From Candidatus Berkelbacteria bacterium (GTDB lineage: Bacteria; Patescibacteriota; UBA1384; JACPKC01), in contig JACQIO010000016.1 in assembly GCA_016198415.1 (NCBI GenBank), forward strand, positions 6,084 through 70,083: DNA of 64,000 nt, in the 5' to 3' direction. A model generated the notes under the pieces. The model was not told where the DNA came from. It saw nothing but the letters and a program-made list of their open reading frames with translations, and did not search any database. Below are positions 5,554 through 36,517 of this stretch, in pieces (the first letter of the stretch is position 1; each line of letters starts with the position of its first letter). A program made the position numbers and the translations under genes.

Positions 5554-5582
5554 TGACAGGAGGAGAGGTACGTGCTAGACTC
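5554..5582 (+). promoter_or_regulatory. sigma70 promoter TTGACA-N17-TAGACT
   Basis: TTGACAGG 5554-5561 and TAGACT 5577-5582, about 250 nt upstream of ATG 5834 (long leader). Confidence 0.35.
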
Positions 5583-8694: not shown

Positions 8695-9621
8695 ATGAAG
8701 AGGTATTTTTCAACGGTGACGGTGACGGTGACGGTGCTGCTCGCGATGGCGATGGTTCTGGTCTTGCTGGGTACGAACCCGGTGCAGGCCAAGGAGACGC
8801 CGCCGCGGAGTGGGTTCTGGGACTTCAAGTGGATCCTCGGGGGCTGGGACGACTGGAAGAAGGTCGGCGTCAAGGCGATGCTCCTGGTCGGCGTGCCGGC
8901 CGAGTATCACCCGGACGACAGCTGGAACTTCGACGACCCGAACACCGGGTTGCCGCAGGGTCTCCAGCTCCGCCTGATCACGGTCGGCGACTCGGTCCGC
9001 AAGGAGATCGATGGCGATGGGGCTGAGTTCGTGGTCCACATGAACAACGACGGCGCCCCGGGCTGGACCGAGGTTGGTCGGTGGCCGACCACCTTCGTGG
9101 ACACCACGATCGATCTCAGCGGTCGCAAGCCGGGTCCGCTGATCATCCGCGCCTACCTGGATGCGGGTGATCACGACGAGGACTCGTACGAGTTGCTCGG
9201 ACGGTGGATCATCCCCCGGGAACAGGTGTTCCGGGCGATGGGCATGGAACCGCCGGCTCGGCCGGGGGATGCCATCCTGCCTCAGGGAACCCTGACCGGC
9301 ACCGTGCTGGTCACCCTGGAAGGTGGGAGCATCGCCGAGGGCTGGGTCTCGGTCTACTGGGACGACCCCAACACCCCGGCTGCCGACTGGCTGAAGATCA
9401 TTAGTCGGCCCGTCCTGGGTCCGACCTACTTCGAACAGGTGCCGGCTGGTCGCGTGACCATCCGGATCTACGACCCGACCGGCACCCAGTGGGAAGTCCC
9501 TGGGCCGGAAGCGCTCCTGTTCCCCGAACTTCGCCCTGGGGGGATGGCCGAGATTCGGATTCGCAGGGTGAAGACGACCGGCGGCCCGACCGCCAGCACA
9601 GGAGGAGGTGGGGTGCGATGA
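8695..9621 (+). CDS. Secreted hypothetical protein (signal peptide)
   Basis: MKRYFSTVTVTVTVLLAMAMVLVLLGTNPVQA signal peptide. SD GGAGGGAG before ATG 8695. (GGTGAC)x3.5 tandem repeat encodes the TVTVTV stretch. Confidence 0.75.
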   Translation: MKRYFSTVTVTVTVLLAMAMVLVLLGTNPVQAKETPPRSGFWDFKWILGGWDDWKKVGVKAMLLVGVPAEYHPDDSWNFDDPNTGLPQGLQLRLITVGDSVRKEIDGDGAEFVVHMNNDGAPGWTEVGRWPTTFVDTTIDLSGRKPGPLIIRAYLDAGDHDEDSYELLGRWIIPREQVFRAMGMEPPARPGDAILPQGTLTGTVLVTLEGGSIAEGWVSVYWDDPNTPAADWLKIISRPVLGPTYFEQVPAGRVTIRIYDPTGTQWEVPGPEALLFPELRPGGMAEIRIRRVKTTGGPTASTGGGGVR

Positions 9622-10622
9622 ACGAGCACCTGAAGAAGACGGCCAGGCGCCCAATGTCGAACGGGACGCTCTGGCTGGTGCTGGTGGTCGCGCTCTGCGC
9701 GCTCTCGCCGGCTTTCGCGTTCGACGCGTCTAACGTCTGGTACTGGGAGAACTACGGCGGGGACAAGCGGAACCCGCTCGGAGTTCGTTCCTGGAGCCAG
9801 TACCGCGACTGGTTCATCTCGGCGGCTGGGCAGAACGATCTCCGGCGGGTCAACCTCCTGCCGGAGGTGGCCGAGAAGATGCTGGAGATGGTCAACCAGC
9901 GGCGCTGGGACGGCCGGGTCTACACCTGGCCGGACGGCTGGTCGGCGCGCCTGTCCAAGGCGGTGGTCAAGAAGGGTGATCGGTACGACGCCCTCACCTT
10001 CAACCCCGCCGGCGTGACGGAGGTGAACGTCGAGGTCGCGTGGAAGGGCCAGAGCTCCGAGACGGTCTACCGCGTGGAGGTCTGGCAACCCGACGGCATC
10101 GGGTGGTCGCTGGACACGTTCCCCAAGTGCGTGAACGGGGGCGTGTTCAGCATCCTGACCATCAAGCCGCCGCCTCCGCCGGTGATTCCGCCCCGGACGC
10201 CGATTCCGCCGGAGACGCCGCCGCCCACTTACCGCTACCGGCCGGTGTCGGTGCCGGGGATCGCCCTCAACTACGGCGAGCACCGGTCCGCGGAGGTGAA
10301 GGGCAACCTGGGTGCCTTCCTGGGGGTCCTGGGTAAGTGGCTGGGAAAGCCGGTCACCAACTTGAGCTTCGCGACGGGTGCCGTGACCGGTGCTAACGCG
10401 TACGCCCAGGGCGGGCAGGTGGGAGCGGTGTCGGCGGTCACGGGACCGATCGACGTCCGCAACGCCCAGTTCCAGGGCCAGGGGCAAGGCCAGCTGACCA
10501 TCGTCCCCATCGTGAACAACGTTGGGGACGGGAATGCTGGCTCGGCGGCTGGGGCTGGGACGGTGACCGCGCCGGTCATCCAGGCCCCGGGCGGGGCCGG
10601 CCCCATCGAGATCAACGACTAA
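9618..10622 (+). CDS. Secreted hypothetical protein with Pro-rich linker and C-terminal QGQGQG-TIVPIVNN module
   Basis: Start ATGA overlap with upstream gene. Signal peptide MNEHLKKTARRPMSNGTLWLVLVVALCALSPAFA. IKPPPPPVIPPRTPIPPETPPP linker. C-terminal NAQFQGQGQGQLTIVPIVNNVGDGNAGSAAGAGTVTAPVIQ. Confidence 0.75.
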   Translation: MNEHLKKTARRPMSNGTLWLVLVVALCALSPAFAFDASNVWYWENYGGDKRNPLGVRSWSQYRDWFISAAGQNDLRRVNLLPEVAEKMLEMVNQRRWDGRVYTWPDGWSARLSKAVVKKGDRYDALTFNPAGVTEVNVEVAWKGQSSETVYRVEVWQPDGIGWSLDTFPKCVNGGVFSILTIKPPPPPVIPPRTPIPPETPPPTYRYRPVSVPGIALNYGEHRSAEVKGNLGAFLGVLGKWLGKPVTNLSFATGAVTGANAYAQGGQVGAVSAVTGPIDVRNAQFQGQGQGQLTIVPIVNNVGDGNAGSAAGAGTVTAPVIQAPGGAGPIEIND

Positions 10623-10796
10623 CCAGCCGGCTCACTCGCGCTTCGGCGCGGATGGGCTCGGCTCTCTGGAGGGAAGGAGGGGAAACCCCACTCCACTGCG
10701 CAAGCGGTGGGGTGGGGGAGTACCTCCTCTGCTTGAACACTCGAGCCGAGGCGCGTACTCCGCGAGACAGAGATTACAACCCGAGGAGGACAACCC

Positions 10797-11399
10797 ATGA
10801 GCAAGTTGCTCACCCTGATCGCCGTTGTGCTGATGGCGATCCCGCAAGCGGCATTCGCGACGGAGGACGGCGTGCACGTCGCGGTCCTGCAGGCCGAGGA
10901 GCTGGCCACGGAGGAGAACAACAACTCCGAGGTCGGGCAGACCCAGACGGTGGATGACGGCGTTCGCTGGGTCGCGATCGAGCCGCCGCAGGTGGAGCTG
11001 CCGGCGCCCCGCATCGAGATGCATCCGGCGACCCTGACCCCCTGGGTCAAGCGGGTCAGCGGCTGCCCGCACTGCGAGCACTGCCAGGCCGAGTCCCAGC
11101 AGCGGACCGACCACGGTCAGGTCCCGAACACCGAGTCGGTGTCGACGCTGCTCGAGCGGTTCATGGGCCGGCCGATCACGCTTCCCGGATCGGGATCGGA
11201 GCAGCAGAACCCGGTCAACATCCAGCTGCTCAACGTGCAGACACTGCCCCCGACGGTTCACCAGCTGGAGCCGACCACATTCCAGCCCACCGAGGAGCAG
11301 ATGCTGCGGGCCCGGTTCCTCTGGGAGGAGCGCGTCCGGCAAGGACTCGAGTCCGACCCTGCCGGCATCGTCGACGGAGGGAGGTACAAGAGCGAGTAG
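10797..11399 (+). CDS. Secreted small hypothetical protein (CPHCEHC motif)
   Basis: Signal peptide MSKLLTLIAVVLMAIPQAAFA. 200 aa. No recognisable domain. Confidence 0.7.
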   Translation: MSKLLTLIAVVLMAIPQAAFATEDGVHVAVLQAEELATEENNNSEVGQTQTVDDGVRWVAIEPPQVELPAPRIEMHPATLTPWVKRVSGCPHCEHCQAESQQRTDHGQVPNTESVSTLLERFMGRPITLPGSGSEQQNPVNIQLLNVQTLPPTVHQLEPTTFQPTEEQMLRARFLWEERVRQGLESDPAGIVDGGRYKSE

Positions 11400-19641: not shown

Positions 19642-19717
19642 CGGCGCGTAGCGCAGCCAGGGAGCGCACTACGTTGGGACGTGGAGGACGTGGGTTCAAA
19701 TCCCATCGCGCCGGCCA
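19642..19717 (+). tRNA. tRNA-Pro (anticodon GGG), CCA encoded. Hand-fold gives a 6-nt anticodon loop
   Basis: Acceptor CGGCGCG/CGCGCCG, D-arm GCGC-AGCCAGGGA-GCGC, anticodon arm CTACG-TTGGGA-CGTGG, T-arm GTGGG-TTCAAAT-CCCAT, discriminator G, CCA. Confidence 0.75.
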
Positions 19718-20035: not shown

Positions 20036-21322
20036 ATGCGGATGCAGCCCTTCACCGTTCTCGCGACTGAGGGCCAGGCCCGGCGGGGACGAATCACGAC
20101 GGCGCATGGCACCATCGAGACACCGGCTTTTGTGCCGTGTGCCACGCATGGGTCGATTCGCGGAGTGCCGACGGATCGATTGAGACCTCGCCGCTCCCTT
20201 CGACCTCGCTCAGGACCGGCCTCCGCCTCGGGAGAGTCCGACATCACTCCCGGGGAGATCCCGCGGCTCGAACTGATCCTCTCCAACATTTATCACCTGA
20301 TGCTCCGGCCGGGGATTGAGGCGATCGAAGCGCTCGGTGGCATCCACCGGTTCATGGGGTGGGAGCGCGCGATCATCACGGATTCCGGTGGTTTCCAAGC
20401 CTTTGTGTTCGCGGAACGAACATCCTCCCGAAGCTCGAAGAACGAAGGGGGACCAGCCCAACTGCGCCAAGGCTTCGCTGGACAACCATCCTTGCGGATG
20501 TCGGAAGAGGGGATGACCTTCCGGTCACACCTCGATGGCTCGACGCACCTCCTGACGCCGGAATCAGTGATCGAGATGCAAGAGCGGATCGGGGTCGACA
20601 TCGGCACCTGTTTGGACGTTTGCACTGGCTTTCCGGTGCCCGAACGCGAGGTCGCGCAGGCGGTCGATCAAACCAATCGCTGGGCCGAGCGCTCGATCGG
20701 TCACTGGTCAAGTGTCACTGGTCAACTGTTACTGTACGGCATGGTGCAAGGGAGTATCTACGAGGACCAGCGCCGTCGATCGGCTGAGTTCATTCGAGCA
20801 CTGCCGTTCGCTGGGTTTGCGATTGGCGGCAACATGTACACCTTTGGGGCGACCCTCGCCGAGCTCGCAGCCCAGAAGCCACGGATGTGGGAGGTGGTTG
20901 GCTACACCGCCTCGCTTCTGCCAGAGGACAAGCCGCGGCACCTCTTGGGGGTAGGGGAGCCGAGCGACCTGATTGCTGGGGTCAAGCAGGGGATCGACAC
21001 CTTCGATTGCGTCATGGCGACGCGGATTGCTCGGCACGGGTCCGCTTGGGTCCGGACCGAGCCGGAGGGGTGGGCCTATCGGCGCGAGAATCTCCGGTCG
21101 GCCGAGTTTTCCCGATCGACGGCACCCATCGATGCGCGGTGTGCCTGCCTAGCTTGCCGCCGGCGTGTGCCGCGGGGGTACCTGCGCCACCTCCTGGTCG
21201 AACAGGATCCGGTGGCGGCTGAGCTCCTCACCCTCCACAACCTGACCTTCCTGGCCACGCTCATGGCCGAGATTCGCTCAAGCCTCGAGGTGGGGACGTT
21301 CACGGACCGCTTTGGCGGTTGA
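20036..21322 (+). CDS. tgt: Queuine tRNA-ribosyltransferase with two low-complexity insertions
   Basis: GQARRGRITTAHGTIETPAFVP, YHLMLRPG, DSGGFQ, C-terminal zinc site CACLACRRRVPRGYLRHLL. About 25-aa Arg/Pro/Ser-rich insertion after IRGVPTD. Confidence 0.9.
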   Translation: MRMQPFTVLATEGQARRGRITTAHGTIETPAFVPCATHGSIRGVPTDRLRPRRSLRPRSGPASASGESDITPGEIPRLELILSNIYHLMLRPGIEAIEALGGIHRFMGWERAIITDSGGFQAFVFAERTSSRSSKNEGGPAQLRQGFAGQPSLRMSEEGMTFRSHLDGSTHLLTPESVIEMQERIGVDIGTCLDVCTGFPVPEREVAQAVDQTNRWAERSIGHWSSVTGQLLLYGMVQGSIYEDQRRRSAEFIRALPFAGFAIGGNMYTFGATLAELAAQKPRMWEVVGYTASLLPEDKPRHLLGVGEPSDLIAGVKQGIDTFDCVMATRIARHGSAWVRTEPEGWAYRRENLRSAEFSRSTAPIDARCACLACRRRVPRGYLRHLLVEQDPVAAELLTLHNLTFLATLMAEIRSSLEVGTFTDRFGG

Positions 21323-21717
21323 CAACGGGCCCACTAACAGGTATACTCGAGCCTGCAATGACCCCCGACGAGGCACGACGAATCCCACCAGCCGGCGAGC
21401 CAATCGCACCGGCCCCAGTGGCTGAGCCGAACGTCCAGAGTGGTGACATCCTGCCCATCCCTGAGTCAAGCGGTCCTCCGGAAGCTGCCCCGGCCGCGGA
21501 GACGGTTCAGAGCGAGTTGATTGAACCGACACCAGACCAATCGACACCAACGTCTCCAGCGCCTCAGACCGAAGCCAAGCCCGGTGTTGCTGCCGATCCG
21601 CCCCATCCCGAGACCAAGCCAGTCGCCCAGAGCTCTGTGGTCGCAGGACCCAACGGGGCCGTCACGGGCCTGCCCAGCATCGAAGCCACCGTTGGCACGC
21701 TCACCAACGCCGCCTAA
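21319..21717 (+). CDS. Pro/Ala/Glu-rich low-complexity hypothetical protein
   Basis: ORF overlapping the tgt stop (ATGA). No domain. Real coding status uncertain. Confidence 0.35.
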   Translation: MTTGPLTGILEPAMTPDEARRIPPAGEPIAPAPVAEPNVQSGDILPIPESSGPPEAAPAAETVQSELIEPTPDQSTPTSPAPQTEAKPGVAADPPHPETKPVAQSSVVAGPNGAVTGLPSIEATVGTLTNAA

Positions 21718-21780: not shown

Positions 21781-24261
21781 TTGACGGGTTTTGCATTTCT
21801 CCTCCTGATACTGGGACTGGCTGGGGCTGGTGGCTGGCTCTGGCTTGATCGTTATCGAGAACGATTGGGGAGTGAGCGCGCCCGAGACCTCGTCCTCTTG
21901 AAGGTCCTAGTCCCCAAGGAGTCTGGTGAGTCGCAAGACGAGACCGGAAAGCGAGACTTCCGGGAAACGATGTCGGTGGCGGAGCAGTTCCTGGCCAGCT
22001 TTGCCTCGCTCCACAAAGAGGGGCTCCTGGAGTGGATTCCCGGTCAGCCCACCATTAGCTTGGAGTTCGTGGCCAAGAACGGGCTCCTGACGTTCTACAT
22101 TGCTGTCCCCAAGGCGTTCCGAGAGCTGGCCGAGCGGCAGCTTCACAGCTACTACCCCTACGCCCAGATCGAGCCGAGCGAAGCGTTCCGCATCTTTTCC
22201 GAGACGGTCTATCCGGAGGGCATGTACGTCAAAACCAAGAAGACGTACGTCCTCCCTATCAAAACCTACAAGGAGCTCGAGAGCGATCCGCTGAACGCCA
22301 TCACCAACGCCTTCAGCAAGCTCCCCGATGGAGTCAATGCCGGGTTCCAGCTCCTCCTCCGGCCCACCTCGGGAGCCTGGCGGGACAAGACCGTCCACGC
22401 CGCCAAATCGGTGGCGCAAGGCAAGAATCTGACCAAATCGCACTGGGCGCTTCAGGCGCTCAATGCGGTTGTGTCCTCGCTTCGCAGTGGCGGAGCCGCG
22501 GCTGAGGAGAAAGAGAAGGAGAAGGAGACCGTTCGCCTGACGCCCATCCAAGAAGAAGTGATGAAGGGAATCCAGGAGAAGGGGAGTAAGGTCGGTTTCT
22601 CGGCCCAGCTGCGGGTGATTGTCCTGTCTCCCACCTCCACCAACGAGGCCAAGATCGCCCTGGACAACATCGCCTCGTCGCTCGGCCAGTACACCGCGCC
22701 CGAGATGAACTACCTGAAGAAAGTTGGGGCGACGGACGCCAAGCAGTTTGCCACCGATTTCATCCTCCGCCGGTTCCGAGAGCGCGCCCCGTCGTCCATC
22801 CTCAACACCGAGGAGCTGGCTTCCCTCTACCACGTGCCCAACGAGTTCATTGAGACGCCCAACATTGAGTGGCTGGCCGCTCGGACCATGGCGCCCCCAT
22901 CTAACTTACCGCCGGAGGACCCCAACGCCGTCATCCTCGGCAAGAGCGTCTACCGAGGTGAGGAGCGGCCGGTCAGGATCAAGCAGGACGATCGGCGCCG
23001 TCACCTCTACTCGATTGGAAAAACTGGCGTGGGCAAGACGACGCTCTTCATCCACCAGATCGAACAGGACATCAAGGCGGGCCGAGGGGTGGCGTACCTG
23101 GATCCCAATGGGGACGCCATCGAGTCGATTCTGACGATCATTCCCAAGGAGCGGGCCGAGGACGTCGTCCTCTTTGATCCGGCCGACCTGGAGCGGCCGA
23201 TGGGACTCAACGTCCTTGAGTGGAAGCGGCTGGAAGACCGCGACTTCCTGGTGGCCGAGTGGCTGGAGATCTTCTACAAGCTCTTTGATCCCAATCGAAC
23301 CGGCATGGTCGGTCCGCAGTTTGAGCACTGGGGGCGGAACGCCTCGCTCTCCGTCATGGCCCGGCCCGGTGGGGGGACGCTCATCGATATCCCACGGCTC
23401 TTCACGGACGATGCGTTCCGGGACGACACGCTCCGGTACGTGACCGATCCGGTCGTCAAGGCATTCTGGGAGCAACAGATGGCCAAGACCGCTGACTTCC
23501 ATAAGTCGGAGATGTACAACTACTTCATCAGTAAGTTCGGTCGTTTCATGACGAACGATCTCATTCGCAACATCATTGGCCAGACCAAGAGCGCCTTCGA
23601 CATTCGCGAGTTGATGGATGGCCATAAGATCTTCCTGGTCAACTTGAGTAAGGGGAAGATTGGTGAGACCAACTCTCACCTGCTGGGTATGATCTTAGTG
23701 GCCAAGATGCAGGTGGCGGCCTTTCAGCGCGCCGACACGCCCGAGGCAGATCGGAAAGACTTCTACCTCTACGTGGATGAGTTCCAGAACTTCACCACCG
23801 ACACGTTCAAGACGATTCTCTCTGAGGCACGGAAGTACCGCCTGAACCTCAACATCACCAACCAGTACATTGCCCAGTTGCCAGAAGAGATTCGAGACGC
23901 TGTCATCGGCAACGCCGGGACCCTCATCTCCATGCGCGTGGGCGCGGCTGACGCTGAGTTTCTCGAGAAGGAGTTCCCCAACGTGACCGAGCACGACCTC
24001 GTCAACCTGCCCTTTGCGAGCTCCTACACCAAGCTCCTGATTGACGGGACACCCACCAAGCCGTTCTCGATGATGACCATCAAGACGGCCACTCCGCCGA
24101 ATGCGGAACTGGGAGCGGCCATCCGTGAGCTCTCGCGCCTCAAGTATGGGAAGGAGAAGCGGCAGGTTGAGCAGGAGATGGAACAGCGCTACCAAGCCAA
24201 GAATCCCTTTGCACCAGACAATCTTCACATTCCGGACGTGCCGCCGGGACGGGAAGGGTAG
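21781..24261 (+). CDS. Membrane-anchored P-loop ATPase, type IV coupling protein (VirD4/TraG/TrwB)-like, paralog 1
   Basis: TTG start, one N-terminal TM helix. Walker A SIGKTGVGKTTL, VAYLDPNGD (as TrwB VIVDPNGD), FDPADLERPMGLNVLE, Walker B DFYLYVDEFQNF, NQYIAQLPEE. Confidence 0.8.
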   Translation: MTGFAFLLLILGLAGAGGWLWLDRYRERLGSERARDLVLLKVLVPKESGESQDETGKRDFRETMSVAEQFLASFASLHKEGLLEWIPGQPTISLEFVAKNGLLTFYIAVPKAFRELAERQLHSYYPYAQIEPSEAFRIFSETVYPEGMYVKTKKTYVLPIKTYKELESDPLNAITNAFSKLPDGVNAGFQLLLRPTSGAWRDKTVHAAKSVAQGKNLTKSHWALQALNAVVSSLRSGGAAAEEKEKEKETVRLTPIQEEVMKGIQEKGSKVGFSAQLRVIVLSPTSTNEAKIALDNIASSLGQYTAPEMNYLKKVGATDAKQFATDFILRRFRERAPSSILNTEELASLYHVPNEFIETPNIEWLAARTMAPPSNLPPEDPNAVILGKSVYRGEERPVRIKQDDRRRHLYSIGKTGVGKTTLFIHQIEQDIKAGRGVAYLDPNGDAIESILTIIPKERAEDVVLFDPADLERPMGLNVLEWKRLEDRDFLVAEWLEIFYKLFDPNRTGMVGPQFEHWGRNASLSVMARPGGGTLIDIPRLFTDDAFRDDTLRYVTDPVVKAFWEQQMAKTADFHKSEMYNYFISKFGRFMTNDLIRNIIGQTKSAFDIRELMDGHKIFLVNLSKGKIGETNSHLLGMILVAKMQVAAFQRADTPEADRKDFYLYVDEFQNFTTDTFKTILSEARKYRLNLNITNQYIAQLPEEIRDAVIGNAGTLISMRVGAADAEFLEKEFPNVTEHDLVNLPFASSYTKLLIDGTPTKPFSMMTIKTATPPNAELGAAIRELSRLKYGKEKRQVEQEMEQRYQAKNPFAPDNLHIPDVPPGREG

Positions 24262-24267
24262 GGGAGG

Positions 24268-27200
24268 ATGCTGACCATCATTCTCCTCCTCATTCTCGCG
24301 GTGGCCGGTTGGTTTGGCTGGCGGGCCTTCCAGCAGTGGCGCTTGGCCCGCCGGGCCGAGGAGTACGCCGGCTGGCTGGGCTCGCAGCGCTCGATCATTC
24401 TCCACGTCCTCGTCCCCAAGAACAACGAGAAGACGCCCCTGGCGGCCGAGCAGTTCTTTGCGGCCATCCACGGCGTCTTCCGGGAGGGCGCTGACTTTCA
24501 GGAGCAGATCAGCTTTGAGCTGGTCAGTCACGACACCTTCATCCATTTCTACCTCCACGTCCCAGCCCACCTCAAAGAGTTCGTTGAGGGCCAGCTCTAC
24601 GCCCAGTACCCGCAGATTGAGATTCAGGAGGTCGAGGATTACCTGACGCCGCTCGTGCCTTCCCAGGCGATGCTCGGTGCCGAGCTCGTCCAGACCAAGG
24701 ACCCGGTCTATCCCATTCTGACCTTCCAGAATTTCACCGTTGATCCGCTCTCGGGGATCACGGCCGTGCTCGGCAACCTCGGTGCGGGCCAGCAGCTCTA
24801 CGTGCAGATCGTCATCAAGCCGGTTGCCGAGTCCTGGCAGGAGCGAGGCGTCAAGTTTGTGGCTGCCAAACGACTCGGCGTTCCGCTCAAAAAGCCGAGC
24901 GGCTTTGTCCAGCTCATCGGGGTGGCCAGTCGCGTGGTCGTCAGTATCCTCCAGACCATCTTCCTACCGTCTGGTGGGGGCGGGGAAGGGGCGGCTGAGG
25001 CGGCGCCCGCCAAAGAGCCGGACAAGCGGCCCGAACTCTCGGCGCCAGAAGAAGCGGCCTTGAAGGGGATTGAGTCCAAGGTCACCAAGTTGGGGTATGC
25101 CGTCAGGATTCGTCTCCTCGCCGTCGCGTCGGATCCCTACACCGCCCGGAGCCGGATTGAGGCGATCAGCGGTGCCTTCAAGCAGTTCAACACCAATAAC
25201 CTGAACGGCTTTCGCTCGGCGATTGTGGACCAGGTTGAGCCATTCCTCCACGCCATGAAGGCGCGTGAGTTTGCTGGCGACGGCATGATTCTCAACACCG
25301 AGGAGCTGGCCTCGCTCTACCACTTGCCGTCGGTCAGCGTGGAGACCCCCAATATGATGTGGGCCGGGAGCAAGAAGGGGGAGCCTCCGGCCAACCTACC
25401 GGTAGCCGGCCGAGACGACGAGTCAGACATCACCTTCCTGGGCATGACGGACTTCCGGAACAATCGGCACAAGTTTGGGATCAAGTCGAAAGATCGCGGT
25501 CTCCACATGTACACCATCGGCAAGACCGGCACGGGGAAGTCAACCCTCCTCCTCAACATGGTCATCGACGATATCCAGAAGGGGAAAGGGGTGGCGGTGG
25601 TTGATCCACACGGGCAGCTCATTCAAGACGTCCTCGAGCGTCTCCCACCCCACCGGACGAACGACGTCATCTACTTCAATCCGGCCGATCGAGATCACCC
25701 GATCGGTTTCAACCTGTTTGAGAGCGTTGATCCAGACCTTCGCAACGTCGTGGCCTCTGGCATCCTGAGCATCTTCAAGAAGCTTTGGGCCGACTCCTGG
25801 GGCCCGCGACTTGAGTACATCCTTCGGAATGCCATCCTCGCCCTCATGTACTATCCGGACACGACCCTCCTGGGGATCAACCGGCTCTTGACCGATCCAG
25901 CCTATGAGCGGCGGGTGATTCGCAAGGTGACCGATCCCGTGGTCCGAGACTTCTTTGAGAACGAGTACGACATGTACGATCCCAAGTTCCGCCGTGAGGC
26001 GATCGCGCCCATTCAGAACAAGGTGGGCCAGTTCCTCTCCTCGAGCACCATCCGCAACATCCTCGGTCAACCGCAGAGCTCCTTCAACATGCGCGAGGTC
26101 ATGGACGAGGGGAAGATTCTGCTCCTGGATCTCTCGATTGGCCGGATTGGTGAAGACAACGCCTCGCTCCTTGGTTCCATGCTGATCACCAAGATTCAGT
26201 TGGCGGCGATGAGTCGGGCCGATATCCCAGAGGCCGAGCGGCGCGACTTCTACCTCTACGTTGATGAGTTCCAGAACTTTGCCACCGAGTCCTTTGCCGT
26301 CATTCTCTCTGAGGCTCGGAAGTACCACCTCAATCTGAGCCTGACGAACCAGTACATTGCCCAGATGCCAGAGGTAGTGGCTAAGGCCATCTTTGGGAAC
26401 GTCGGCACGATTATTTCGTTTCGAGTTGGTCCGAGCGATGCGGCTGGCCTGGCCAAAGAGTTTGAGCCAGTCTTTGAGTCGCAGGACCTGATCAACCTCG
26501 ATAACTACCACATCTACGTGAAGATGGCGATCGATGGGGTGACGCGGCCGGCGTTCTCGTCCAAGACGTTACCGCCCATGAATGTCCAGCCAAGCCGGGA
26601 GAACTACGAGAAGGTTGTTCGGGTATCCAGAGAGCGCTACGCCTCACCACGCGTCTTTGTGGAACAGAAGATTCAGGACTGGGCGGACGACGTCCAGGTC
26701 AAGCAGGCGCAGGAGTGGCGCCGGAAGATTGAGGAGCGAGAGCAGGGGAGTGGTGGCACCCCGGGGACGCCACCCTCACCAGCTGGGGCCAGTCAGCCGC
26801 GACCGGAACCGCGCCGGGAGCCGGAGTACCGCAATCGGAACGACTTTGTGAAGTTTGTCGACGATACCAAGCCGACTCCATCGCCAGCGCCACGCTCAGT
26901 TGCTCCACGACCCCCAGCGGCGCCGAGTGGCCAGGGTGGCCGGCCCTCCTCCAATCGGGATGCCGATCGGAGTCGTCGGTCTCGAGGAGGGAGGAATCGC
27001 CGTGGTCCCGCTGGATCTGGAGGGCAGGGGAGTGGTCAGGCCCCATCCACTGGATCTCGGCCGAGCGGGCCACCGAGAACTCGCGGGCCGGAGCAGGGGA
27101 GTCGACCAGCTCCAGCAGCTCTGAGCCCGAGTCAACCACAACCGGCGCAGCCGCCCAAACAAGAGGGGAGTGCCGAACCCATTCGACCCAACCCACCGCC

Positions 27201-27363
27201 AGCGCCACGATCGGTGTCGGCTGTACCAGCGCGACCAATCATCTCAGCAGAGGACATCCAGGCCCTGAGAGAAGCGGCCGGGGCTGAGCCGGAGGCGGAC
27301 CTCGGCACGCTCACTCCCGGTGAAGAGATCTCGCTTCACGATGACCGGGACGTCACACCCTAG
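24268..27363 (+). CDS. Membrane-anchored P-loop ATPase, T4CP-like, paralog 2 with ~230-aa Pro/Arg/Gly/Ser-rich C-terminal tail
   Basis: Same motif set as paralog 1 (TIGKTGTGKSTL, VAVVDPHGQ, DFYLYVDEFQNF, NQYIAQMPE). SD GGGAGG before ATG 24268. Confidence 0.8.
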   Translation: MLTIILLLILAVAGWFGWRAFQQWRLARRAEEYAGWLGSQRSIILHVLVPKNNEKTPLAAEQFFAAIHGVFREGADFQEQISFELVSHDTFIHFYLHVPAHLKEFVEGQLYAQYPQIEIQEVEDYLTPLVPSQAMLGAELVQTKDPVYPILTFQNFTVDPLSGITAVLGNLGAGQQLYVQIVIKPVAESWQERGVKFVAAKRLGVPLKKPSGFVQLIGVASRVVVSILQTIFLPSGGGGEGAAEAAPAKEPDKRPELSAPEEAALKGIESKVTKLGYAVRIRLLAVASDPYTARSRIEAISGAFKQFNTNNLNGFRSAIVDQVEPFLHAMKAREFAGDGMILNTEELASLYHLPSVSVETPNMMWAGSKKGEPPANLPVAGRDDESDITFLGMTDFRNNRHKFGIKSKDRGLHMYTIGKTGTGKSTLLLNMVIDDIQKGKGVAVVDPHGQLIQDVLERLPPHRTNDVIYFNPADRDHPIGFNLFESVDPDLRNVVASGILSIFKKLWADSWGPRLEYILRNAILALMYYPDTTLLGINRLLTDPAYERRVIRKVTDPVVRDFFENEYDMYDPKFRREAIAPIQNKVGQFLSSSTIRNILGQPQSSFNMREVMDEGKILLLDLSIGRIGEDNASLLGSMLITKIQLAAMSRADIPEAERRDFYLYVDEFQNFATESFAVILSEARKYHLNLSLTNQYIAQMPEVVAKAIFGNVGTIISFRVGPSDAAGLAKEFEPVFESQDLINLDNYHIYVKMAIDGVTRPAFSSKTLPPMNVQPSRENYEKVVRVSRERYASPRVFVEQKIQDWADDVQVKQAQEWRRKIEEREQGSGGTPGTPPSPAGASQPRPEPRREPEYRNRNDFVKFVDDTKPTPSPAPRSVAPRPPAAPSGQGGRPSSNRDADRSRRSRGGRNRRGPAGSGGQGSGQAPSTGSRPSGPPRTRGPEQGSRPAPAALSPSQPQPAQPPKQEGSAEPIRPNPPPAPRSVSAVPARPIISAEDIQALREAAGAEPEADLGTLTPGEEISLHDDRDVTP

Positions 27364-27703: not shown

Positions 27704-28630
27704 TCACGCCCTGTTCGACTTGACCTTTTGCCACACAATCAGGAGCTGGGCCGCCAGGAAGATCGAGCTGTAGACGCCCACGATCACCCCGATGAGCAGG
27801 GCGCTTGTGAAGGCACGGATCGAACTCCCCCCCAGCAGGAGGAGTGTGGTCAGTACCAGTACGAGCGTGAGGGATGTGCTGATCGATCGGACGACCGTCT
27901 GTGCCACCGAGACGTTGACGACGTCCTCAAACGGTGCCGTTGGGTTTCTGAGGAGATTCTCGCGGATCCGATCGTACGTGACAATCGTATCGTGGACGGA
28001 GAAGCCCATGACGGTCAGCATGGCCGTGATGAAGAGCGAGTCGACCTCGTAGCCAAAGAGGTGGCCAAGGAGGGCAAAGGCGCCCACGGTGATCAGGAGG
28101 TCGTGGAGGAGCGCAATCACAGCCGTCACACCAAAGCGCCAGGAGTTGGTGGGGGCAGGGACGCGCCGGAAGGCCCAGGCAATGTAGAGGATGATTGCAC
28201 CCGAGGCCAAGACGATCGCCCAGATGGCCTTGCGGGTCAGATCCTGGCCCACGGTTGGGCCGACGTTCTCAAACCGTAGCTCCTCCCACTCGCCCACCTC
28301 GCTGAGCGTCGTTCGGAGCCGGTCCAGCTCCTCGCTCGACGCTCGGGTTCGGATGAGGAAGCTCGCCTCATCGGTTGGGGCCACGCTCGCGGCTGGGATG
28401 ATCCCCGCTGCCTCGGCCTGGGTGACTCGGTCTCGGAGATTTTCACTGGCCACCGGTGCCAGGTAGCGGAGCTCTAGGAGCTGACCGCCCGTGAAGTCGA
28501 TCCCGATCCGGAGACCGTACCCCCACAGGAGGGCCACGCTCGCCAGGGTCAGGACCAAGGACAAGGTGAACCACATACGCCGCTGTGCCAACCAGCGGAC
28601 AACTTGAGGGTTACTGGAGTTGTTTGGCAT
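27704..28630 (-). CDS. secF: Protein translocase subunit SecF
   Basis: Six-TM SecF topology, GIDFTGGQLLELRY, C-terminal RND-like helices. Confidence 0.9.
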   Translation of the reverse strand: MPNNSSNPQVVRWLAQRRMWFTLSLVLTLASVALLWGYGLRIGIDFTGGQLLELRYLAPVASENLRDRVTQAEAAGIIPAASVAPTDEASFLIRTRASSEELDRLRTTLSEVGEWEELRFENVGPTVGQDLTRKAIWAIVLASGAIILYIAWAFRRVPAPTNSWRFGVTAVIALLHDLLITVGAFALLGHLFGYEVDSLFITAMLTVMGFSVHDTIVTYDRIRENLLRNPTAPFEDVVNVSVAQTVVRSISTSLTLVLVLTTLLLLGGSSIRAFTSALLIGVIVGVYSSIFLAAQLLIVWQKVKSNRA

Positions 28631-29909
28631 AGCGGGCCACTCCGTTGAGATTGAGCCTGAGTAGCGTTCGGCTCACGGTCACGGCCGTGAACATGGAGAC
28701 CAGAATGCCGATGGCGAGCGTGACGGCAAAGCCGCGGACCAGACCGGTCGTTGTGTAGTAGAGAATGGCGGCCGTAATCAGCGAGGAGACGTTCGAGTCC
28801 AAGATGCTCGACCACGCCCGGCGGAACCCGTCTTCAACGGCCTCGGCACTCCCCTTTCCGCCCCGAATCTCCTCACGCATTCGCTCAAAGATAAGGATGT
28901 TGGCGTCGACGGCCATGCCAATCGAGAGGATGAAGCCGGCAATGCCTGCCAGGGTGAGCGTGACGGGAATGATCTCAAAGAGCGCCAGGGTAATGATCCC
29001 GTAGATCATGAGGGCCATCGTGGCCAGGAATCCCGGCAGGCGGTAGTAGAGGATCATGTAGAGCGCCACCAGTAAGAGACCAACGACGCCGGCCAGGAGG
29101 CTCTCTTGGACCGAGAGTGCTCCGAGCGTCGCCCCGATCGTCCGTTCTTCCACCAGCTCAACGGGCACGGGCAGGGCGCCGGCGTTCAACTGGATGGCCA
29201 GCTCCTTGGCCTCGTCGATGCTGAAGCCGCCACTAATGATCGCGGTCCCATCGGTGATCTCGCTCTGGACCGTTGGAGCCGTGATCAGTTCCTCGTCTAG
29301 GAAGACCGCGATCGGCTGACCAAGGTGGGACTCAGTCAAGGCGCGGAACTTCTCACGGCCGTCGGCGTTGAAGTCGAGCTGGACCACGGGCGAGCTCCCC
29401 AGCCCCAGGCTCCCGGTTGCCCCGGATTGATCAAAGCTGACGCTGGCTCGCGTCAGGTCGGCGCCGGTCAGATCCGTTGGGGCAAAGCTCCCCACAAACG
29501 TTGCTCGGATGCCCTCGTCACCCTCCAGGGCCGGCTGCCAGAACTCAAGCCGGGCCGTCCGGCCAATTAGAGACTTTGCCTCACCAACGTCTTGGACCCC
29601 CGGTAGCTCCACCAAAATGGCCTCTCGCTCCCCCACTCGGCTGGTCTGAATGACCGGTTCGGCCACGCCCAGGGCATCGACGCGGCGGCGAATCGCTTCC
29701 TGAACGCCGGCGATCGCATCGTCCTGTTCGTTCGGCTCGACCGTCGCCAAATCAAGCTCGTAGACCAGCTGCGTCCCCCCTTGGAGATCCAAACCCGGGT
29801 GGAGGCGGACGCCCTTCACAAACCACACGTCCGTTGGCCACGCGAACATACCGGCCACGACCGTGAGAAGTGCAATCAACCAGAATGTCCACCACGTGCG
29901 TCGGCGCAT
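28611..29909 (-). CDS. secD: Protein translocase subunit SecD (start taken at internal Met MRRRTWW, just downstream of manC stop)
   Basis: LDLQGGTQLVYELD periplasmic domain and SecD TM bundle. The longer ORF would overlap manC by 107 nt. Confidence 0.9.
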   Translation of the reverse strand: MRRRTWWTFWLIALLTVVAGMFAWPTDVWFVKGVRLHPGLDLQGGTQLVYELDLATVEPNEQDDAIAGVQEAIRRRVDALGVAEPVIQTSRVGEREAILVELPGVQDVGEAKSLIGRTARLEFWQPALEGDEGIRATFVGSFAPTDLTGADLTRASVSFDQSGATGSLGLGSSPVVQLDFNADGREKFRALTESHLGQPIAVFLDEELITAPTVQSEITDGTAIISGGFSIDEAKELAIQLNAGALPVPVELVEERTIGATLGALSVQESLLAGVVGLLLVALYMILYYRLPGFLATMALMIYGIITLALFEIIPVTLTLAGIAGFILSIGMAVDANILIFERMREEIRGGKGSAEAVEDGFRRAWSSILDSNVSSLITAAILYYTTTGLVRGFAVTLAIGILVSMFTAVTVSRTLLRLNLNGVARYAKQLQ

Positions 29910-29916
29910 CGTGCTC

Positions 29917-30999
29917 CTAGAGGTACTGCCGGAGCCCTTCATTGGTGAGGAGCTCGACGACCTTCTTGACCTCTTGCGATCGTTCTTTTGGAGTGACCAG
30001 GAGGGCGTCGGGGGTGTCAACAATCACCAGCCCGGAGACGCCAATCGTCGCGATCAGCTTCTCAGGAGGACCGTACACGAGCGTATTCTGTGTATCAATC
30101 CCCCGCCAGTGTGCCTTGACGAGATTGCCGTGCTCGTCGGCTTGCTCAGCGAGCTGCTCGGAGAGCATATGCCAATCTCCCAGATCAGCCCAGCCAAAGT
30201 CGCCGCGGACGGTCCGGACCTCGCTTGAGTCCATCTTCTCAATCACCGCGTAGTCAATCGATTTCGCTTCCATCCTGGCGAACGCAGCGTGCAGTGCGTC
30301 TTCGTTCTTCTTCTCGAGTGCGTCGATGATCGCTGGCAACTGGCGACCGATGGATGGTGCAAACCGTTCGTAGGCGTCCATAAAGCGTTGTGGCGTCCAC
30401 AGGAAGTAGCCACCGTTCCAGAGGTAGTTGCCCTCAGCGAGAAACTGCTTGGCGGTCTTGGCGTCTGGTTTCTCGCGCTGGCCTTCGAAGGCGAAGACGT
30501 GGACTCCGCCACGCGTTTCGAGTTCCTCGCCGACCTTGAGGTAGCCGAGGTTTGTGTTTGGGAACGTTGGCGGCAGGCCAATGTTGACCATCACGCCGAG
30601 CTCACGGACTAGCGCCTCGCCGACCGAGAACGTTGCCCGATACATCGCCGGATTCTTGATGTGGTGGTCAGCCGGCATGAGGATCATCGGCTCGTCAGCG
30701 CCGACCCGTGACATCCAGGCGGCGACGAACGCCATGGCCGGGCCGGTATCACGCCGTTCCGGCTCGATGATGTAGTGGTCCTTGGGGACCTTCGGTAGGA
30801 GGCGGTGGACGACTGGCGCAAACGGGCCGATCGTCGAGATGTACGTGTTCGCTGGGGTCGCGAGTCCGTCGAGCCGCTTGACCGTTTCCTCGAGCATGGT
30901 GAGCTCAGTGACGAGCTGGGCAAACTGCTTTGGCTGCGTGAACCGGCTCCGTGGCCAGAGTCGCGTCCCCGATCCCCCGCACATGATGACGTAGTTCAT
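29917..30999 (-). CDS. Mannose-1-phosphate guanylyltransferase (GDP-mannose pyrophosphorylase) family
   Basis: MNYVIMCGGSGTRLWPRSR...KQF nucleotidyltransferase signature. 360 aa. Confidence 0.85.
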   Translation of the reverse strand: MNYVIMCGGSGTRLWPRSRFTQPKQFAQLVTELTMLEETVKRLDGLATPANTYISTIGPFAPVVHRLLPKVPKDHYIIEPERRDTGPAMAFVAAWMSRVGADEPMILMPADHHIKNPAMYRATFSVGEALVRELGVMVNIGLPPTFPNTNLGYLKVGEELETRGGVHVFAFEGQREKPDAKTAKQFLAEGNYLWNGGYFLWTPQRFMDAYERFAPSIGRQLPAIIDALEKKNEDALHAAFARMEAKSIDYAVIEKMDSSEVRTVRGDFGWADLGDWHMLSEQLAEQADEHGNLVKAHWRGIDTQNTLVYGPPEKLIATIGVSGLVIVDTPDALLVTPKERSQEVKKVVELLTNEGLRQYL

Positions 31000-33595: not shown

Positions 33596-36517
33596 TCAAT
33601 CATAGTCCCGGAAGGGATTGTTTGGATTCGGATCAAACTTTCCTGCCTTGATCGCTTCAACGGTCTCGACGATGAGTTGTCGAGTTGACTCCATCAAAGG
33701 CTCGTCGGGTTCGATCACACCCTCCAGATCGTGCTCGACAAAGTCCAGGACCACGCGCTTGGGCATGTGGCCAAACTGCTGCTGGTAGGCAAGAGCATAG
33801 ATCCGAATGGGGACGTTCTCCCTAGCCTTCTTGGTTGCTTCCTTCTGATCAGTGACGTGACTGGTCTTGAAATCGCGGATCTCATCACGGCTGGTGAAGA
33901 TGGCGTCCATGCGACCACTGATCCTTGTGCCCGGCAGACCGAGCTTGAAGCTGTGCTCCACCAGCTCGGGGACGGCCTGCGTGTGAGCTCGCTTCACGAA
34001 TCGTTGGAGCGTCTCTTGGCCGTGCTCAAACTGTCGGTTCTCGTCCGCCTTTGACTCAAAGCCTTCGCTCTTCCATGCCTCGCTGTAGCGGCGGAGCACG
34101 TCGTCGAGAGTCGGGCTCTTCCCCTCTTTCCGGAATCTGTGGTAGGCCTCGATGGCCGAGTGAATCGCGTTTCCATAGACCAAGTGACGACTCGGCTCCT
34201 GCGGCGCCTTGAGGACGTAGCGCCAGTAGAACTGGTAGGGATCCTGCTGGTAGCACTCGATCGCGGCTGGTGAGAGGAACAGGAGGCCATCGTAGGTGGG
34301 CAGCTGAATCGTTGGCTTGACCGGCAGACTCGGTGCAAACTCGTGCAGGCGAGCCATTGGTTCCACCACGGAGAGTGGCTCGGGGGCCTGCGTCAGTTCG
34401 AGCGCCTCGAGGACAAACGGACTGATCTTGCCCGCCCGCGTTCCACTGCCAGAGCGTTCGGCGCCAGAGAGAATGAGCTGCTGCTTGGCCCGGGTCATTG
34501 CCACGTACATCAGGCGCCGCTCCTCTGCGAGGTGCCCGTCACCCGTCGGCAGCTCTTCGGCGATCAGTTGGCCCGGCAGCTCGATGGGATCGCGTCGGCG
34601 CCGGGCCGGGAATCGGCTGTTGGTCAAGCTCGGGAGGAAGATCGTATCAAACTCTAGCCCCTTGGCCGCGTGGACGGTCATCACCTGCACCGCCGGAGTA
34701 TCCGGGCCAAGGCTGACGCTCGGCGGTACCACCGATCCCAGGAGTTCGTCGAGCTGGTCAACAAACGCGAAGGCAAAGGGATCGCGGCCCGCATCGAGAT
34801 AGCTCTTGATGGCCTCAAAAACGGCGGCAATGTTCTGAATCATGACCAATCGATCGGGCTCGGGGGCCTCGAGAAAGAGCGACCGTTGCGTGCCACTGTC
34901 CGCCTGGTCCAGGGTGAGTACCCCGCGCTCGCGCAAAAACTGGTAGAGAATCTCACCCGGGTTCTTGGTGCCGATCATGGCTCGGTAGCGGACAAGATCG
35001 TCGCGAAAGGCCTCAATTGCTGCCTGGCCTGACTCAGGCACTCGTTGCCACGCGACCGAATGAGGATCATGGAGCACGTCGTGGATACCCCGATTGCCTC
35101 GTCGCGAGGCATCGTTGAAAGGCAGGATCCACTCTGGCTCGAGGTGGTAGTAGGGACTGAGTGCCAACTTGAGGTGGGCGAGGGAATCATCGGTCCGGGT
35201 CAGACACTTGAGGAAGGCGACGATCCCGCGGATCTCCGGCCGAGCCGTGAAGCCCTGATCCTTGCTGGTTCGGTACGGGAGCCCAGCGGTAGTGAGGGCT
35301 GAGGTGACTGAGCTGATCAGGGAGTTGGAACGAACCAAGATGGCGATGTCCTGGAGCGGCACCTGCATTGATCGCTGTTGGATCTCAGTGGCGAGGGCGG
35401 CGAGTTCGTCGGCCTCATGAACGTACCACCGGAACACGGGTTGACTCCCCGGCTCCTGCCCGTGGAGTCGTTTCTGGATGTCGAGTTTACTCTCTAAGCG
35501 ATCGGGATCATTGTGACGGATCAGCCGGTAGGCGCTGTCAAGAATCGACTGCGTCGAGCGATAGTTCTCCGTCAGGACCACCTGCGCAGCCTTTGGAAAG
35601 TCCTTGATGAAGCCCAGGATGTTTGAGACGGCCGCTCCACGGAACTTGTAGATGGCTTGGTCATCATCGCCAACGACCGTGAGATTCCGAGACGGTCCGA
35701 GAAGCCGCTTGACCAATTGGTACTGGGCGATGTTCGTATCTTGGAACTCATCAACAAGGACGAACGAGAACTGTTGCTGCAGCCGCGCCCGGATGGTCGG
35801 ATGGGCATCGAGGAATGTCACCAAGCGCAGGATCTGGTCGCCAAAGTCGATGACGCCTTTCTCGGCCTTGAACTCCTCATACGCCGCATAGATGGTGGCA
35901 ACGTCCAGCTGGCGCCGTGCTTCCTGAACTTCATCCTCATTGCTGGCCTGTGCCAGGAGTTGCTCGGCAACAACCCGGTACCGGGCCGGTGTTACCAGCT
36001 CATCTTTGGCCCGTGAAATGACGGTCAAGATCGGCTGGATGAATTTGCGTGGATTGCCCAGTGGCCGAAGCTCTGCTAGGCCCTCGATCGCATCGAATCG
36101 ATCAGCCAGGAAGATGGCCTGCTCGTTCGCCCCCAAGACCGAGAACTCAGGTGGCAAGCCGAGGTCGAGCGCGTACTCACGTAGGAGCTGATCGCCAAAG
36201 GCATGAAAGGTGGCAACGGTGGCGCCGGTCTGGCCGTACGGTAGGAGCTGGTCAACCCGAGCTTCCATCTCCCCTGCCGCCTTCTCCGTGAAGGTTAGTG
36301 CCAAGATCTCACTTGGCTTGGCTAGGCCTTCAGCAACTAGCCAGGCCACCCGGTGCGTCAGGACCTTGGTCTTGCCGGTGCCGGCTCCCGCCACCACTAA
36401 CAGAGGTCCTGTGCCATGGGTGACGGCCCGGCGTTGGGCGGCGTTCAGGCTCTCTAGGAGGGTGTCCGTCGGCTGAGTCGGGACCGACGGTGTGGTTGGA
36501 GATCGAGGCTTGACCAT
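33596..36517 (-). CDS. UvrD/PcrA-like superfamily-1 helicase fused to a C-terminal PD-(D/E)xK RecB-family nuclease domain (AddA-like)
   Basis: Walker A AGAGTGKT, UvrD motifs throughout. C-terminal GRMDAIFTSRDEIRDFKTS nuclease motif. Confidence 0.85.
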   Translation of the reverse strand: MVKPRSPTTPSVPTQPTDTLLESLNAAQRRAVTHGTGPLLVVAGAGTGKTKVLTHRVAWLVAEGLAKPSEILALTFTEKAAGEMEARVDQLLPYGQTGATVATFHAFGDQLLREYALDLGLPPEFSVLGANEQAIFLADRFDAIEGLAELRPLGNPRKFIQPILTVISRAKDELVTPARYRVVAEQLLAQASNEDEVQEARRQLDVATIYAAYEEFKAEKGVIDFGDQILRLVTFLDAHPTIRARLQQQFSFVLVDEFQDTNIAQYQLVKRLLGPSRNLTVVGDDDQAIYKFRGAAVSNILGFIKDFPKAAQVVLTENYRSTQSILDSAYRLIRHNDPDRLESKLDIQKRLHGQEPGSQPVFRWYVHEADELAALATEIQQRSMQVPLQDIAILVRSNSLISSVTSALTTAGLPYRTSKDQGFTARPEIRGIVAFLKCLTRTDDSLAHLKLALSPYYHLEPEWILPFNDASRRGNRGIHDVLHDPHSVAWQRVPESGQAAIEAFRDDLVRYRAMIGTKNPGEILYQFLRERGVLTLDQADSGTQRSLFLEAPEPDRLVMIQNIAAVFEAIKSYLDAGRDPFAFAFVDQLDELLGSVVPPSVSLGPDTPAVQVMTVHAAKGLEFDTIFLPSLTNSRFPARRRRDPIELPGQLIAEELPTGDGHLAEERRLMYVAMTRAKQQLILSGAERSGSGTRAGKISPFVLEALELTQAPEPLSVVEPMARLHEFAPSLPVKPTIQLPTYDGLLFLSPAAIECYQQDPYQFYWRYVLKAPQEPSRHLVYGNAIHSAIEAYHRFRKEGKSPTLDDVLRRYSEAWKSEGFESKADENRQFEHGQETLQRFVKRAHTQAVPELVEHSFKLGLPGTRISGRMDAIFTSRDEIRDFKTSHVTDQKEATKKARENVPIRIYALAYQQQFGHMPKRVVLDFVEHDLEGVIEPDEPLMESTRQLIVETVEAIKAGKFDPNPNNPFRDYD

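Follow-up and report, generated by a model that had tools for sequence, protein, structure and literature searches.

Introduction

Patescibacteria depend on host bacteria, and the relaxase-less type IV secretion system (T4SS) of this phylum is the first T4SS shown to be essential for the growth of its bearer. The machine derives from conjugation machinery of the mating-pair-formation (MPF) type MPF-FATA (PMC12102498), and in Southlakia epibionticum the essential T4SS cluster contains no recognisable coupling protein (Wang et al., 2023; PMC10633639). A survey published in 2025 counted 5,713 homologues of type IV coupling proteins (T4CPs) across 2,918 genomes of Patescibacteria; only 148 of these homologues lay close to virB4, and the authors did not rule out exaptation of the orphan homologues (PMC12102498). 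Here we analyze a stretch of 64 kb from a Candidatus Berkelbacteria bacterium (contig JACQIO010000016.1, positions 6,084 to 70,083; hereafter the window), in which two adjacent genes for T4CP-like ATPases, which we call A and B, occupy positions 21781-27363.

Both genes encode membrane-anchored members of the T4CP family with intact catalytic motifs, and the family to which they belong is core, chromosomal and phylum-wide. A preliminary description of the locus, made from the sequence alone, had called the pair uncharacterized. That term still applies to their function, but the genes had not gone unnoticed: the family is already in Pfam (DUF8128), and its members were counted among the orphan T4CP homologues across Patescibacteria in the 2025 survey (PMC12102498). 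As far as this window is concerned, A and B are ordinary members of a catalogued family. What is added here is the predicted likeness in fold of their N-terminal domain to the N-terminal domain (NTD) of VirB4, the occurrence of the same architecture in the T4CP slot of plasmids together with its split form in haloarchaea, the distinction between A-type and B-type genes, and the essentiality, in published transposon data for S. epibionticum, of the A-type gene and of a small open reading frame (ORF) in front of it.

Results

Gene A (21781-24261, plus strand) encodes 826 amino acids from a TTG start, and gene B (24268-27363, plus strand) encodes 1031 amino acids from an ATG start. ORF calling and BLASTP confirmed the two adjacent genes at the lengths first reported, and showed the products to be paralogues with 37% identity over 824 amino acids. 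The E-value of this match (1e-154) puts their kinship far beyond chance. The shared motif set of the preliminary description was found complete, with all five motifs present in both proteins: Walker A (residue 411 in A, 416 in B), VAxxDP(N/H)G (437 and 442), F(D/N)PAD (465 and 470), the Walker B motif DFYLYVDEFQNF (660 in A and B alike) and NQYIAQ(L/M)PE (694, again in both). Across 122 aligned A- and B-type sequences, Walker A, Walker B, R684 and Q695/Q699 were invariant. From their positions relative to Walker B, we take R684 to be a putative arginine finger and Q695/Q699 to be the putative conserved glutamines.

The motor carrying these motifs spans residues ~384-770 of A (22930-24090, plus strand; Walker A at 23011-23046, Walker B at 23758-23793) and residues ~389-775 of B (25432-26592, plus strand; Walker A at 25513-25548, Walker B at 26245-26280). 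Sequence and fold together assign it to the group of TrwB, VirD4 and DotL and not to FtsK, HerA or VirB4. In Pfam scans, A matched PF02534 (T4SS-DNA_transf) with 28.8 bits against a gathering cut-off of 20.1 and PF12696 (TraG-D_C) with 23.5 bits against 22, while B matched PF10412 (TrwB_AAD_bind) over residues 412-730 with 37.5 bits against 20.5. In the same scans FtsK_SpoIIIE (PF01580) gave only a sub-threshold match to B (E 0.096, 12.6 bits) and none to A, DUF87/HerA reached 20.8 bits for B against a cut-off of 23.2 and left A unmatched, and the VirB4 families AAA_10, CagE_TrbE_VirB and P-loop_TraG matched neither protein at E<=1. A profile built from the 122-member family found DotL and TrwB as the best sequences of solved structure in a search of the PDB, and VirB4, FtsK and HerA were not among its matches. 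The T4CP-like character of the ATPases therefore held under each of these searches, and the profile comparison that could have moved them to HerA or FtsK left both of those families below their cut-offs. Among the NCBIfam equivalogs, the TraD model reached at most 47 bits where 366 are required, and the CD1115 VirD4-like model at most 40 where 250 are. Scores so far below the cut-offs indicate that A and B are distant from every named T4CP subfamily.

An AlphaFold2 model of A (pLDDT 92.9, pTM 0.85) contained an all-alpha insertion in the motor at residues ~485-600. The motor superimposed on TrwB with a TMt of 0.60-0.66 and on Cagbeta with 0.55, and fold matches to HerA were weaker by TM-score. 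For the full-length protein, the best Foldseek E-value (4.8e-15) belonged to TrwK/VirB4, with an alignment running end to end over ~870-930 columns.

Between membrane anchor and motor, each protein has the non-ATPase domain of roughly 300 residues that had been noticed ahead of the P-loop, and this can now be refined to Pfam family PF26449 (DUF8128). The assignment comes from the precomputed domain annotation of database proteins, including P0001, a Candidatus Berkelbacteria protein at NCBI that is 100% identical to A. In A the domain is alpha/beta and covers residues ~37-350 (21889-22830, plus strand). In B it is collinear with that of A, covers residues ~41-355 (24388-25332, plus strand) and is annotated as PF26449 on the B-type orthologues; the two N-domains share 29% identity in our alignment (A2). 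Essentially all A- and B-type relatives carry PF26449 in their N-terminal ~340 residues. The precomputed domain string, seen on hundreds of these proteins, reads PF26449 followed by PF10412, PF02534 or PF12696, and no VirB4-specific Pfam family occurs on the strings of the relatives.

Structure prediction, proposed for this domain in the preliminary description, points to a VirB4-NTD-like fold. A model of the N-domain of A alone (pLDDT 83.5) gave significant matches to TrwK/VirB4 chains only, with E-values from 1e-6 (TrwK) to 2e-4 and a probability of 1.0. The predicted likeness is at the level of fold only: hhalign detected no profile similarity between DUF8128 and a plasmid VirB4 (probability 0.2%), and VirB4 was absent from a PDB profile search with DUF8128 at E<=10. 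A literature search on the name DUF8128 returned no papers.

The NCBI record of gene B comprises only the last 668 amino acids (P0121), and that of its orthologue at locus L001 comprises 665. In both places about 1 kb encoding the DUF8128 domain is unannotated though the reading frame is open (24268-25356 of the window, 12397-13420 of L001). Many database representatives that appear to consist of the ATPase only begin at the equivalent of B residue ~384; they may reflect the same start-site artefact or may be true split genes.

In each protein, only one segment of 19 residues is strongly hydrophobic; it lies at the very N-terminus and is followed by a stretch rich in Arg, in agreement with the one transmembrane (TM) helix per protein originally proposed. 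By hydropathy this anchor falls at residues 4-22 of A (21790-21846, plus strand), where it is part of a helix at residues 2-35 in the model, and at residues 1-19 of B (24268-24324, plus strand). An additional, weaker hydrophobic stretch of B near residue 200 lies within the N-domain. By the positive-inside rule, we infer an N-out/C-in topology in which all domains of both proteins would be cytoplasmic.

Beyond the motor, B continues into a C-terminal low-complexity tail at residues 801-1031 (26668-27360, plus strand), rich in Pro, Arg, Ala, Gly and Ser and containing RGG-like runs. Its 231 residues (17.7% Pro, 12% Arg, 10% Gly, 10% Ser; pI 10) match the tail of ~230 residues noted beforehand in both length and composition. 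All B-type orthologues carry such tails, with a median of 145 amino acids past the motor versus 18 in Berkelbacteria A-type proteins, and the sequence of the tails is not conserved. A long low-complexity tail is found on the Saccharibacteria A-type protein, too.

The origin of this architecture was sought among plasmids. A tblastn search of 72,556 plasmids found relatives in 540 plasmid records at 24-29% identity, 19 of which reached at least 80% query coverage with the N-domain included. The main hosts were Bacillus (293) and Streptomyces (70), followed by Staphylococcus, Clostridium, haloarchaea and Sulfolobus. On the Bacillus licheniformis plasmid NZ_CP035190, the relative WP_128472464.1 (885 amino acids) is gene 1 of a conjugation operon in which it is directly followed by Replic_Relax and later by TcpC, a VirB4 recognized by AAA_10 (389.5 bits) and a CwlT-like hydrolase; its position is the coupling-protein slot. 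The N-terminus of this protein matched the DUF8128 profile with a probability of 99.1% (E 1e-18). On the haloarchaeal plasmid pHTS138 the architecture is divided between two proteins, WP_204749458.1 and WP_204749459.1, with DUF8128 as a stand-alone ORF of 399 amino acids (probability 99.4%) and an ATPase that matches all three T4CP Pfam families. In this Haloterrigena plasmid (L086, 7758-12051) the 399-amino-acid DUF8128 ORF is the upstream one of the two and overlaps the gene of the 1034-amino-acid T4CP-like ATPase by 11 bp. Since the same architecture fills the T4CP slot in Bacillus and occurs in split form on a haloarchaeal plasmid, sequence comparison identifies A and B as chromosomal descendants of a monoderm/archaeal subclass of conjugative T4CPs. 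Such a descent fits the MPF-FATA origin of the Patescibacteria T4SS (PMC12102498). It also means that the architecture is not of a kind peculiar to small-genome episymbionts, as had been suggested, because it occupies the coupling-protein slot of Gram-positive conjugation operons.

The family is very large. An exhaustive search with residues 1-800 of B returned 24,431 representative clusters at E<=1e-3, of which 7,042 remained at E<=1e-30, and a scan of one genome per species found at least 597 relatives. These came from Microgenomatia, Paceibacteria, ABY1, Gracilibacteria/Peregrinibacteria, Saccharimonadia and Berkelbacteria, so that the family spans all Patescibacteria classes. Several loci (L021, L008, L069, L081, L082 and others) are typical Patescibacteria A-type loci in bins with implausible labels (Gammaproteobacteria, Pseudomonadales, Bathyarchaeia, Nitrospirota, Limisphaerales), and these bins are probably mislabelled or contain mis-binned contigs.

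The proposed conservation among small-genome episymbionts thus stands for the family, which runs throughout the Patescibacteria, and fails for the tandem pair. Among 82 loci, A and B were found in tandem only at L001-L006. These loci are Berkelbacteria-like, with an identity to A of 51% or more, and all have the rplJ-rplL-tgt...secDF context; this housekeeping synteny of the pair is kept in relatives at 55-76% identity. The remaining 76 of the 82 loci have one copy within +-10 kb, and this copy is always more A-like (~600 versus ~470 bits). The recurrent neighbours of the single-copy genes encode DivIC, an XerC/D-type recombinase, Cob_adeno_trans, NrdR, ribonucleotide reductase and MurC, and relaxase or mating-pair-formation genes are not among the recurrent neighbours at the 82 loci. 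At L007-L082, the XerC/D-type recombinase gene was seen at 21 loci, on the opposite strand and a median of ~0.8 kb downstream, and DivIC adjoined the A-type gene at 23. This association is probably class-level synteny.

We calculated a distance tree with the Bacillus plasmid protein as its root and with 40 and 60 bootstrap replicates. A clustered with the single-copy genes from all labelled classes, and B fell outside this group in 40 of 40 bootstraps; the taxon-labelled A-type genes clustered by class. If the exclusion of B is not a strong rate artefact, then the duplication predates the divergence of the classes. By this sequence-based criterion A and B are old paralogues, and their tandem layout is a lineage-specific arrangement. 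Many deep-branching representatives fell on the B side of the tree, where the median identity of 47% (minimum 33%) was comparable to that of the A side, 42% (minimum 31%). The broad B side had weak support as a monophyletic group (20 of 60 bootstraps). Two old paralogues would fit the roughly two T4CP homologues per genome that follow from the survey counts (PMC12102498).

S. epibionticum has two family members, SEML1_0142 and SEML1_0293 (Wang et al., 2023; PMC10633639), which are unlinked. SEML1_0142 is 1019 amino acids long with a P-loop domain at 381-800, and SEML1_0293 is 921 amino acids long with PF10412, PF12696 and PF01935 (PMC10633639). To SEML1_0142 we could relate P0352, a protein of 1019 amino acids from the Saccharimonadia clade that a search with the L041 A-type gene had recovered; in the tree, P0352 falls within clade A. 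The gene order around P0352 is that of SEML1_0138-0145: YifB, a 125-amino-acid ORF, a 143-amino-acid ORF, the ATPase, two minus-strand genes, gyrB and gyrA. P0352 scored 578 bits (39% identity) against A and 431 bits (33%) against B, and it has the A-specific insertions. Because of this synteny, the closer score to A, the insertions and the position in clade A, we take SEML1_0142 as the A-type orthologue. SEML1_0293 is presumed to be the B-type copy.

In the transposon-sequencing data for this organism, SEML1_0142 was essential at all three time points (ES/ES/ES), with insertions falling from 114 in the input to 11, 11 and 9 under selection, and Table S1 flags it as a core family and as Patescibacteria-enriched (PMC10633639). 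The 139-amino-acid ORF SEML1_0141, 12 bp upstream of SEML1_0142, fell from 9 insertions in the input to 0 (PMC10633639). The main text of that paper is silent on SEML1_0141 and SEML1_0142, whose essentiality appears only in the supplementary table. SEML1_0293 was called non-essential and its insertion count stays high (Table S1, PMC10633639). Its normalized reads went from 5,817 to 2,940 to 1,372 over T0-T2 (Table S1, PMC10633639), which hints at a mild fitness cost of its loss. For S. epibionticum, the 2025 survey mentions only the non-essential t4cp homologue (PMC12102498). The genome also encodes a canonical essential FtsK, SEML1_0096, with alpha, gamma and 4TM domains (PMC10633639).

A small ORF in front of the A-type gene is a common feature of the family. 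At 72 of 83 loci the A-type gene was preceded, on its own strand, by an ORF of 60-260 amino acids that ended no more than 300 bp before it and often within a few bp. The products of these ORFs combine a low-complexity N-terminal part rich in Pro, Glu and Gln with a short, conserved helix at the C-terminus. They form class-specific families (27 of Microgenomatia type, 10 of Paceibacteria type, 7 of Saccharimonadia type), between which iterated searches with hidden Markov models (HMMs) detected no cross-class homology. In the window, the corresponding ORF lies at 21319-21717 (plus strand) and encodes 132 amino acids from a TTG or 119 from the ATG at 21358. The product is rich in Pro, Ala, Thr and Glu, has a pI of 4.05 and is probably disordered. 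In the iterated HMM searches it joined none of the three class-specific families, and it resembled its L001 counterpart only in composition and in a weak C-terminal match. Given this weak similarity and a codon-position guanine-plus-cytosine (GC) content (0.71/0.61/0.63) that is atypical for the genome, its coding status is uncertain; it possibly encodes a partner protein.

A consensus scan found a candidate sigma-70-type promoter (TTGACA-17-TATACT, 11 of 12 positions matching) at 21319-21347 on the plus strand, exactly at the tgt stop codon and upstream of the small ORF, A and B. Since the scan of the region gave 2 sites versus 1.6 expected by chance, the candidate is suggestive only. If this promoter were used, then translation of the small ORF would begin at the ATG at 21358, and its mRNA would have no leader or almost none. 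Within the pair, the ATG of B lies 6 bp past the stop codon of A, and a GGAGG overlaps that stop codon. This spacing and the position of the GGAGG make translational coupling of A and B likely.

The pair is flanked upstream by tgt (20036-21322) and downstream by secF/secD (27704-30023, minus strand), which converge on it, and base composition is flat across the region, with unremarkable GC content and skew. Genes were called over the entire 64 kb, and ORFs that were large or lacked annotation were scanned with Pfam. No Pfam-recognisable gene for VirB4, VirB6, VirB11, a relaxase or a pilin was present in the window, and the scan of its ORFs found neither integrase or MPF genes near the pair nor a NurA-like neighbour. 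Gene calls and Pfam thus upheld both the location between tgt and secDF and the lack of VirB-like partners in the window. The only other sizeable Walker-A proteins in the window are a UvrD-type helicase-nuclease and an ABC ATPase. The former is a UvrD helicase of 973 amino acids fused to a PD-(D/E)XK nuclease (AddA-like; 33596-36517, minus strand).

Elsewhere in the window, Pfam left five successive ORFs of 522, 904, 319, 377 and 200 amino acids at 3710-11399 (plus strand) unmatched. None of the five contains a Walker A motif, several carry a signal or TM segment at the N-terminus, and the block may be a lineage-specific set of surface proteins. A tRNA gene at 19642-19717 (plus strand), for which ARAGORN could not determine the anticodon ('gg') and which matches the Rfam tRNA model with 52.3 bits, is the first of a cluster that lies between rplL and tgt and also includes tRNA-Glu(ttc) and tRNA-Thr(ggt). 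A 473-amino-acid protein encoded at 59512-60933 (plus strand) has CBM96 and Lamin-tail domains.

Discussion

We propose that A and B are membrane-anchored, hexameric substrate-receptor ATPases serving the relaxase-less T4SS of the phylum, with A as the core and B as an accessory component, a reading to which we would give about an even chance. Both would assemble into rings anchored in the membrane, which would spend ATP on recruiting substrates and passing them into a translocation channel. Most likely, this channel is the chromosomal, relaxase-less, MPF-FATA-related T4SS encoded elsewhere in the genome, whose cluster is without a coupling protein. Through its VirB4-like N-domain, the motor would dock on the VirB3/VirB6-type membrane platform that VirB4 uses. 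The core unit would be A, probably with the small acidic upstream protein; counterparts of both are essential in S. epibionticum. B would be an accessory or alternative receptor, and its long, basic, disordered tail could recruit other substrates or adaptors, as the C-terminal extensions of TraD and DotL do. As the phylum has almost no relaxases, conjugative DNA is a less likely cargo than protein, or some other macromolecule, that is exchanged with the host. The role as a DNA or protein translocation pair that the preliminary description supposed is putative.

If no T4SS were involved, then rings of A and B, together with the small upstream protein, would have to form or energize a conduit of their own, exapted from T4CPs, for example for import or export of nucleic acid or protein at the site of host contact. 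We consider this main rival unlikely, though several observations favour it: the genes are almost never linked to virB4 (PMC12102498) and lie in housekeeping neighbourhoods, T4CP homologues occur in 2,918 of 3,035 genomes versus 2,417 for VirB4 (PMC12102498), and the survey authors themselves keep exaptation open (PMC12102498). The difference in prevalence does not discriminate, since it is an effect of copy number and of the completeness of metagenome-assembled genomes; 96% versus 80% is what two unlinked copies and one copy, respectively, would yield at a detection rate of 0.8 (0.2 squared = 0.04). Moreover, no candidate channel protein is conserved beside the genes, a single TM helix is too little for a pore, and the plasmid relatives work within complete T4SS operons. 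An extended form of this idea, in which A combines with the small acidic protein, and B supplies a second ring or an alternative subunit, to constitute an essential, T4SS-independent, Patescibacteria-specific motor exapted for macromolecule transfer between epibiont and host, and in which the N-domain marks a surviving intermediate between VirB4 and T4CPs, seems to us rather doubtful. The N-domain could also mean that the proteins are divergent VirB4-like assembly ATPases, holding the VirB4-type position in the inner-membrane complex and powering assembly of the machine or of a pilus. The collinear NTD and motor do align end to end with TrwK/VirB4 (best Foldseek E 4.8e-15), and the N-domain matches VirB4 chains only. 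This reading is nevertheless improbable, as neither protein matches a VirB4 Pfam family at E<=1, in contrast to the 389.5 bits that AAA_10 gives a genuine plasmid VirB4, and the DUF8128 profile fails to match that VirB4. In addition, the plasmid relatives coexist with a separate VirB4 and adjoin a relaxase-family gene, and Patescibacteria have a VirB4 clade of their own (PMC12102498).

Two further accounts detach the genes from secretion altogether. For the first, an FtsK-like chromosome translocase for division and dimer resolution, two points speak: T4CPs and FtsK are related ring translocases, and in other classes the single A-type gene repeatedly neighbours genes for an XerC/D-type recombinase (at 21 loci) and DivIC (at 23). 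Such a role is very improbable given that S. epibionticum has the canonical essential FtsK SEML1_0096, that FtsK_SpoIIIE gives E 0.096 for B, no match for A and no gamma domain in either, and that Xer and DivIC are absent from the Berkelbacteria and Saccharibacteria loci. Replacement of FtsK by A or B was rejected on the grounds of that separate FtsK and of the class-specific nature of the Xer and DivIC neighbours. The pair could otherwise be mobile DNA without a core function, left over from an integrated conjugative element, considering that the closest characterized context of the architecture is conjugative plasmids. We find this scarcely credible. No relaxase, integrase or MPF genes lie nearby, GC content and skew are unremarkable, and the rplJ-rplL-tgt...secDF context holds in relatives down to 51% identity. 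The taxon-labelled A-type genes cluster by class, neither ORF is interrupted, the catalytic residues of both are invariant, and the orthologue SEML1_0142 is essential.

On the proposal that A and B serve the T4SS of the phylum as substrate receptors, their T4CP descent, their VirB4-NTD-like docking domain and the essentiality of the A-type gene and small ORF in S. epibionticum make A/B-type orphan genes the obvious candidates for the missing coupling motor, and experimental targets in cultivable Saccharibacteria. The VirB4-like N-domain is also relevant to the way in which coupling proteins attach to the inner-membrane complexes of T4SSs.

Compared with known systems, A and B share with TrwB of R388, VirD4/Cagbeta and DotL an N-terminal anchor and a P-loop motor with Walker A and B motifs and an all-alpha insertion. 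They differ from these classical T4CPs in having one TM helix instead of two or more, in the ~320-residue DUF8128 domain between anchor and motor, and in being core chromosomal genes in two paralogues without relaxase or T4SS genes alongside; in structural alignments A is only ~13-15% identical to them. With VirB4/TrwK they share the layout of an NTD followed by a C-terminal ring ATPase, but their motor is nearer to the T4CPs and no VirB3, VirB6 or VirB8 genes are adjacent. The proteins of NZ_CP035190 and pHTS138 have the same full architecture and align over residues ~39-800 at 24-26% identity. Unlike A and B, these are plasmid-borne inside T4SS operons, with the Bacillus gene adjoining a relaxase-family gene, and have neither tandem paralogues nor a long basic tail. 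In S. epibionticum, SEML1_0142 is preceded by an ORF of ~140 amino acids as A is in the window, and SEML1_0293 carries the same Pfam signature (PF10412, PF12696 and PF01935) as B.

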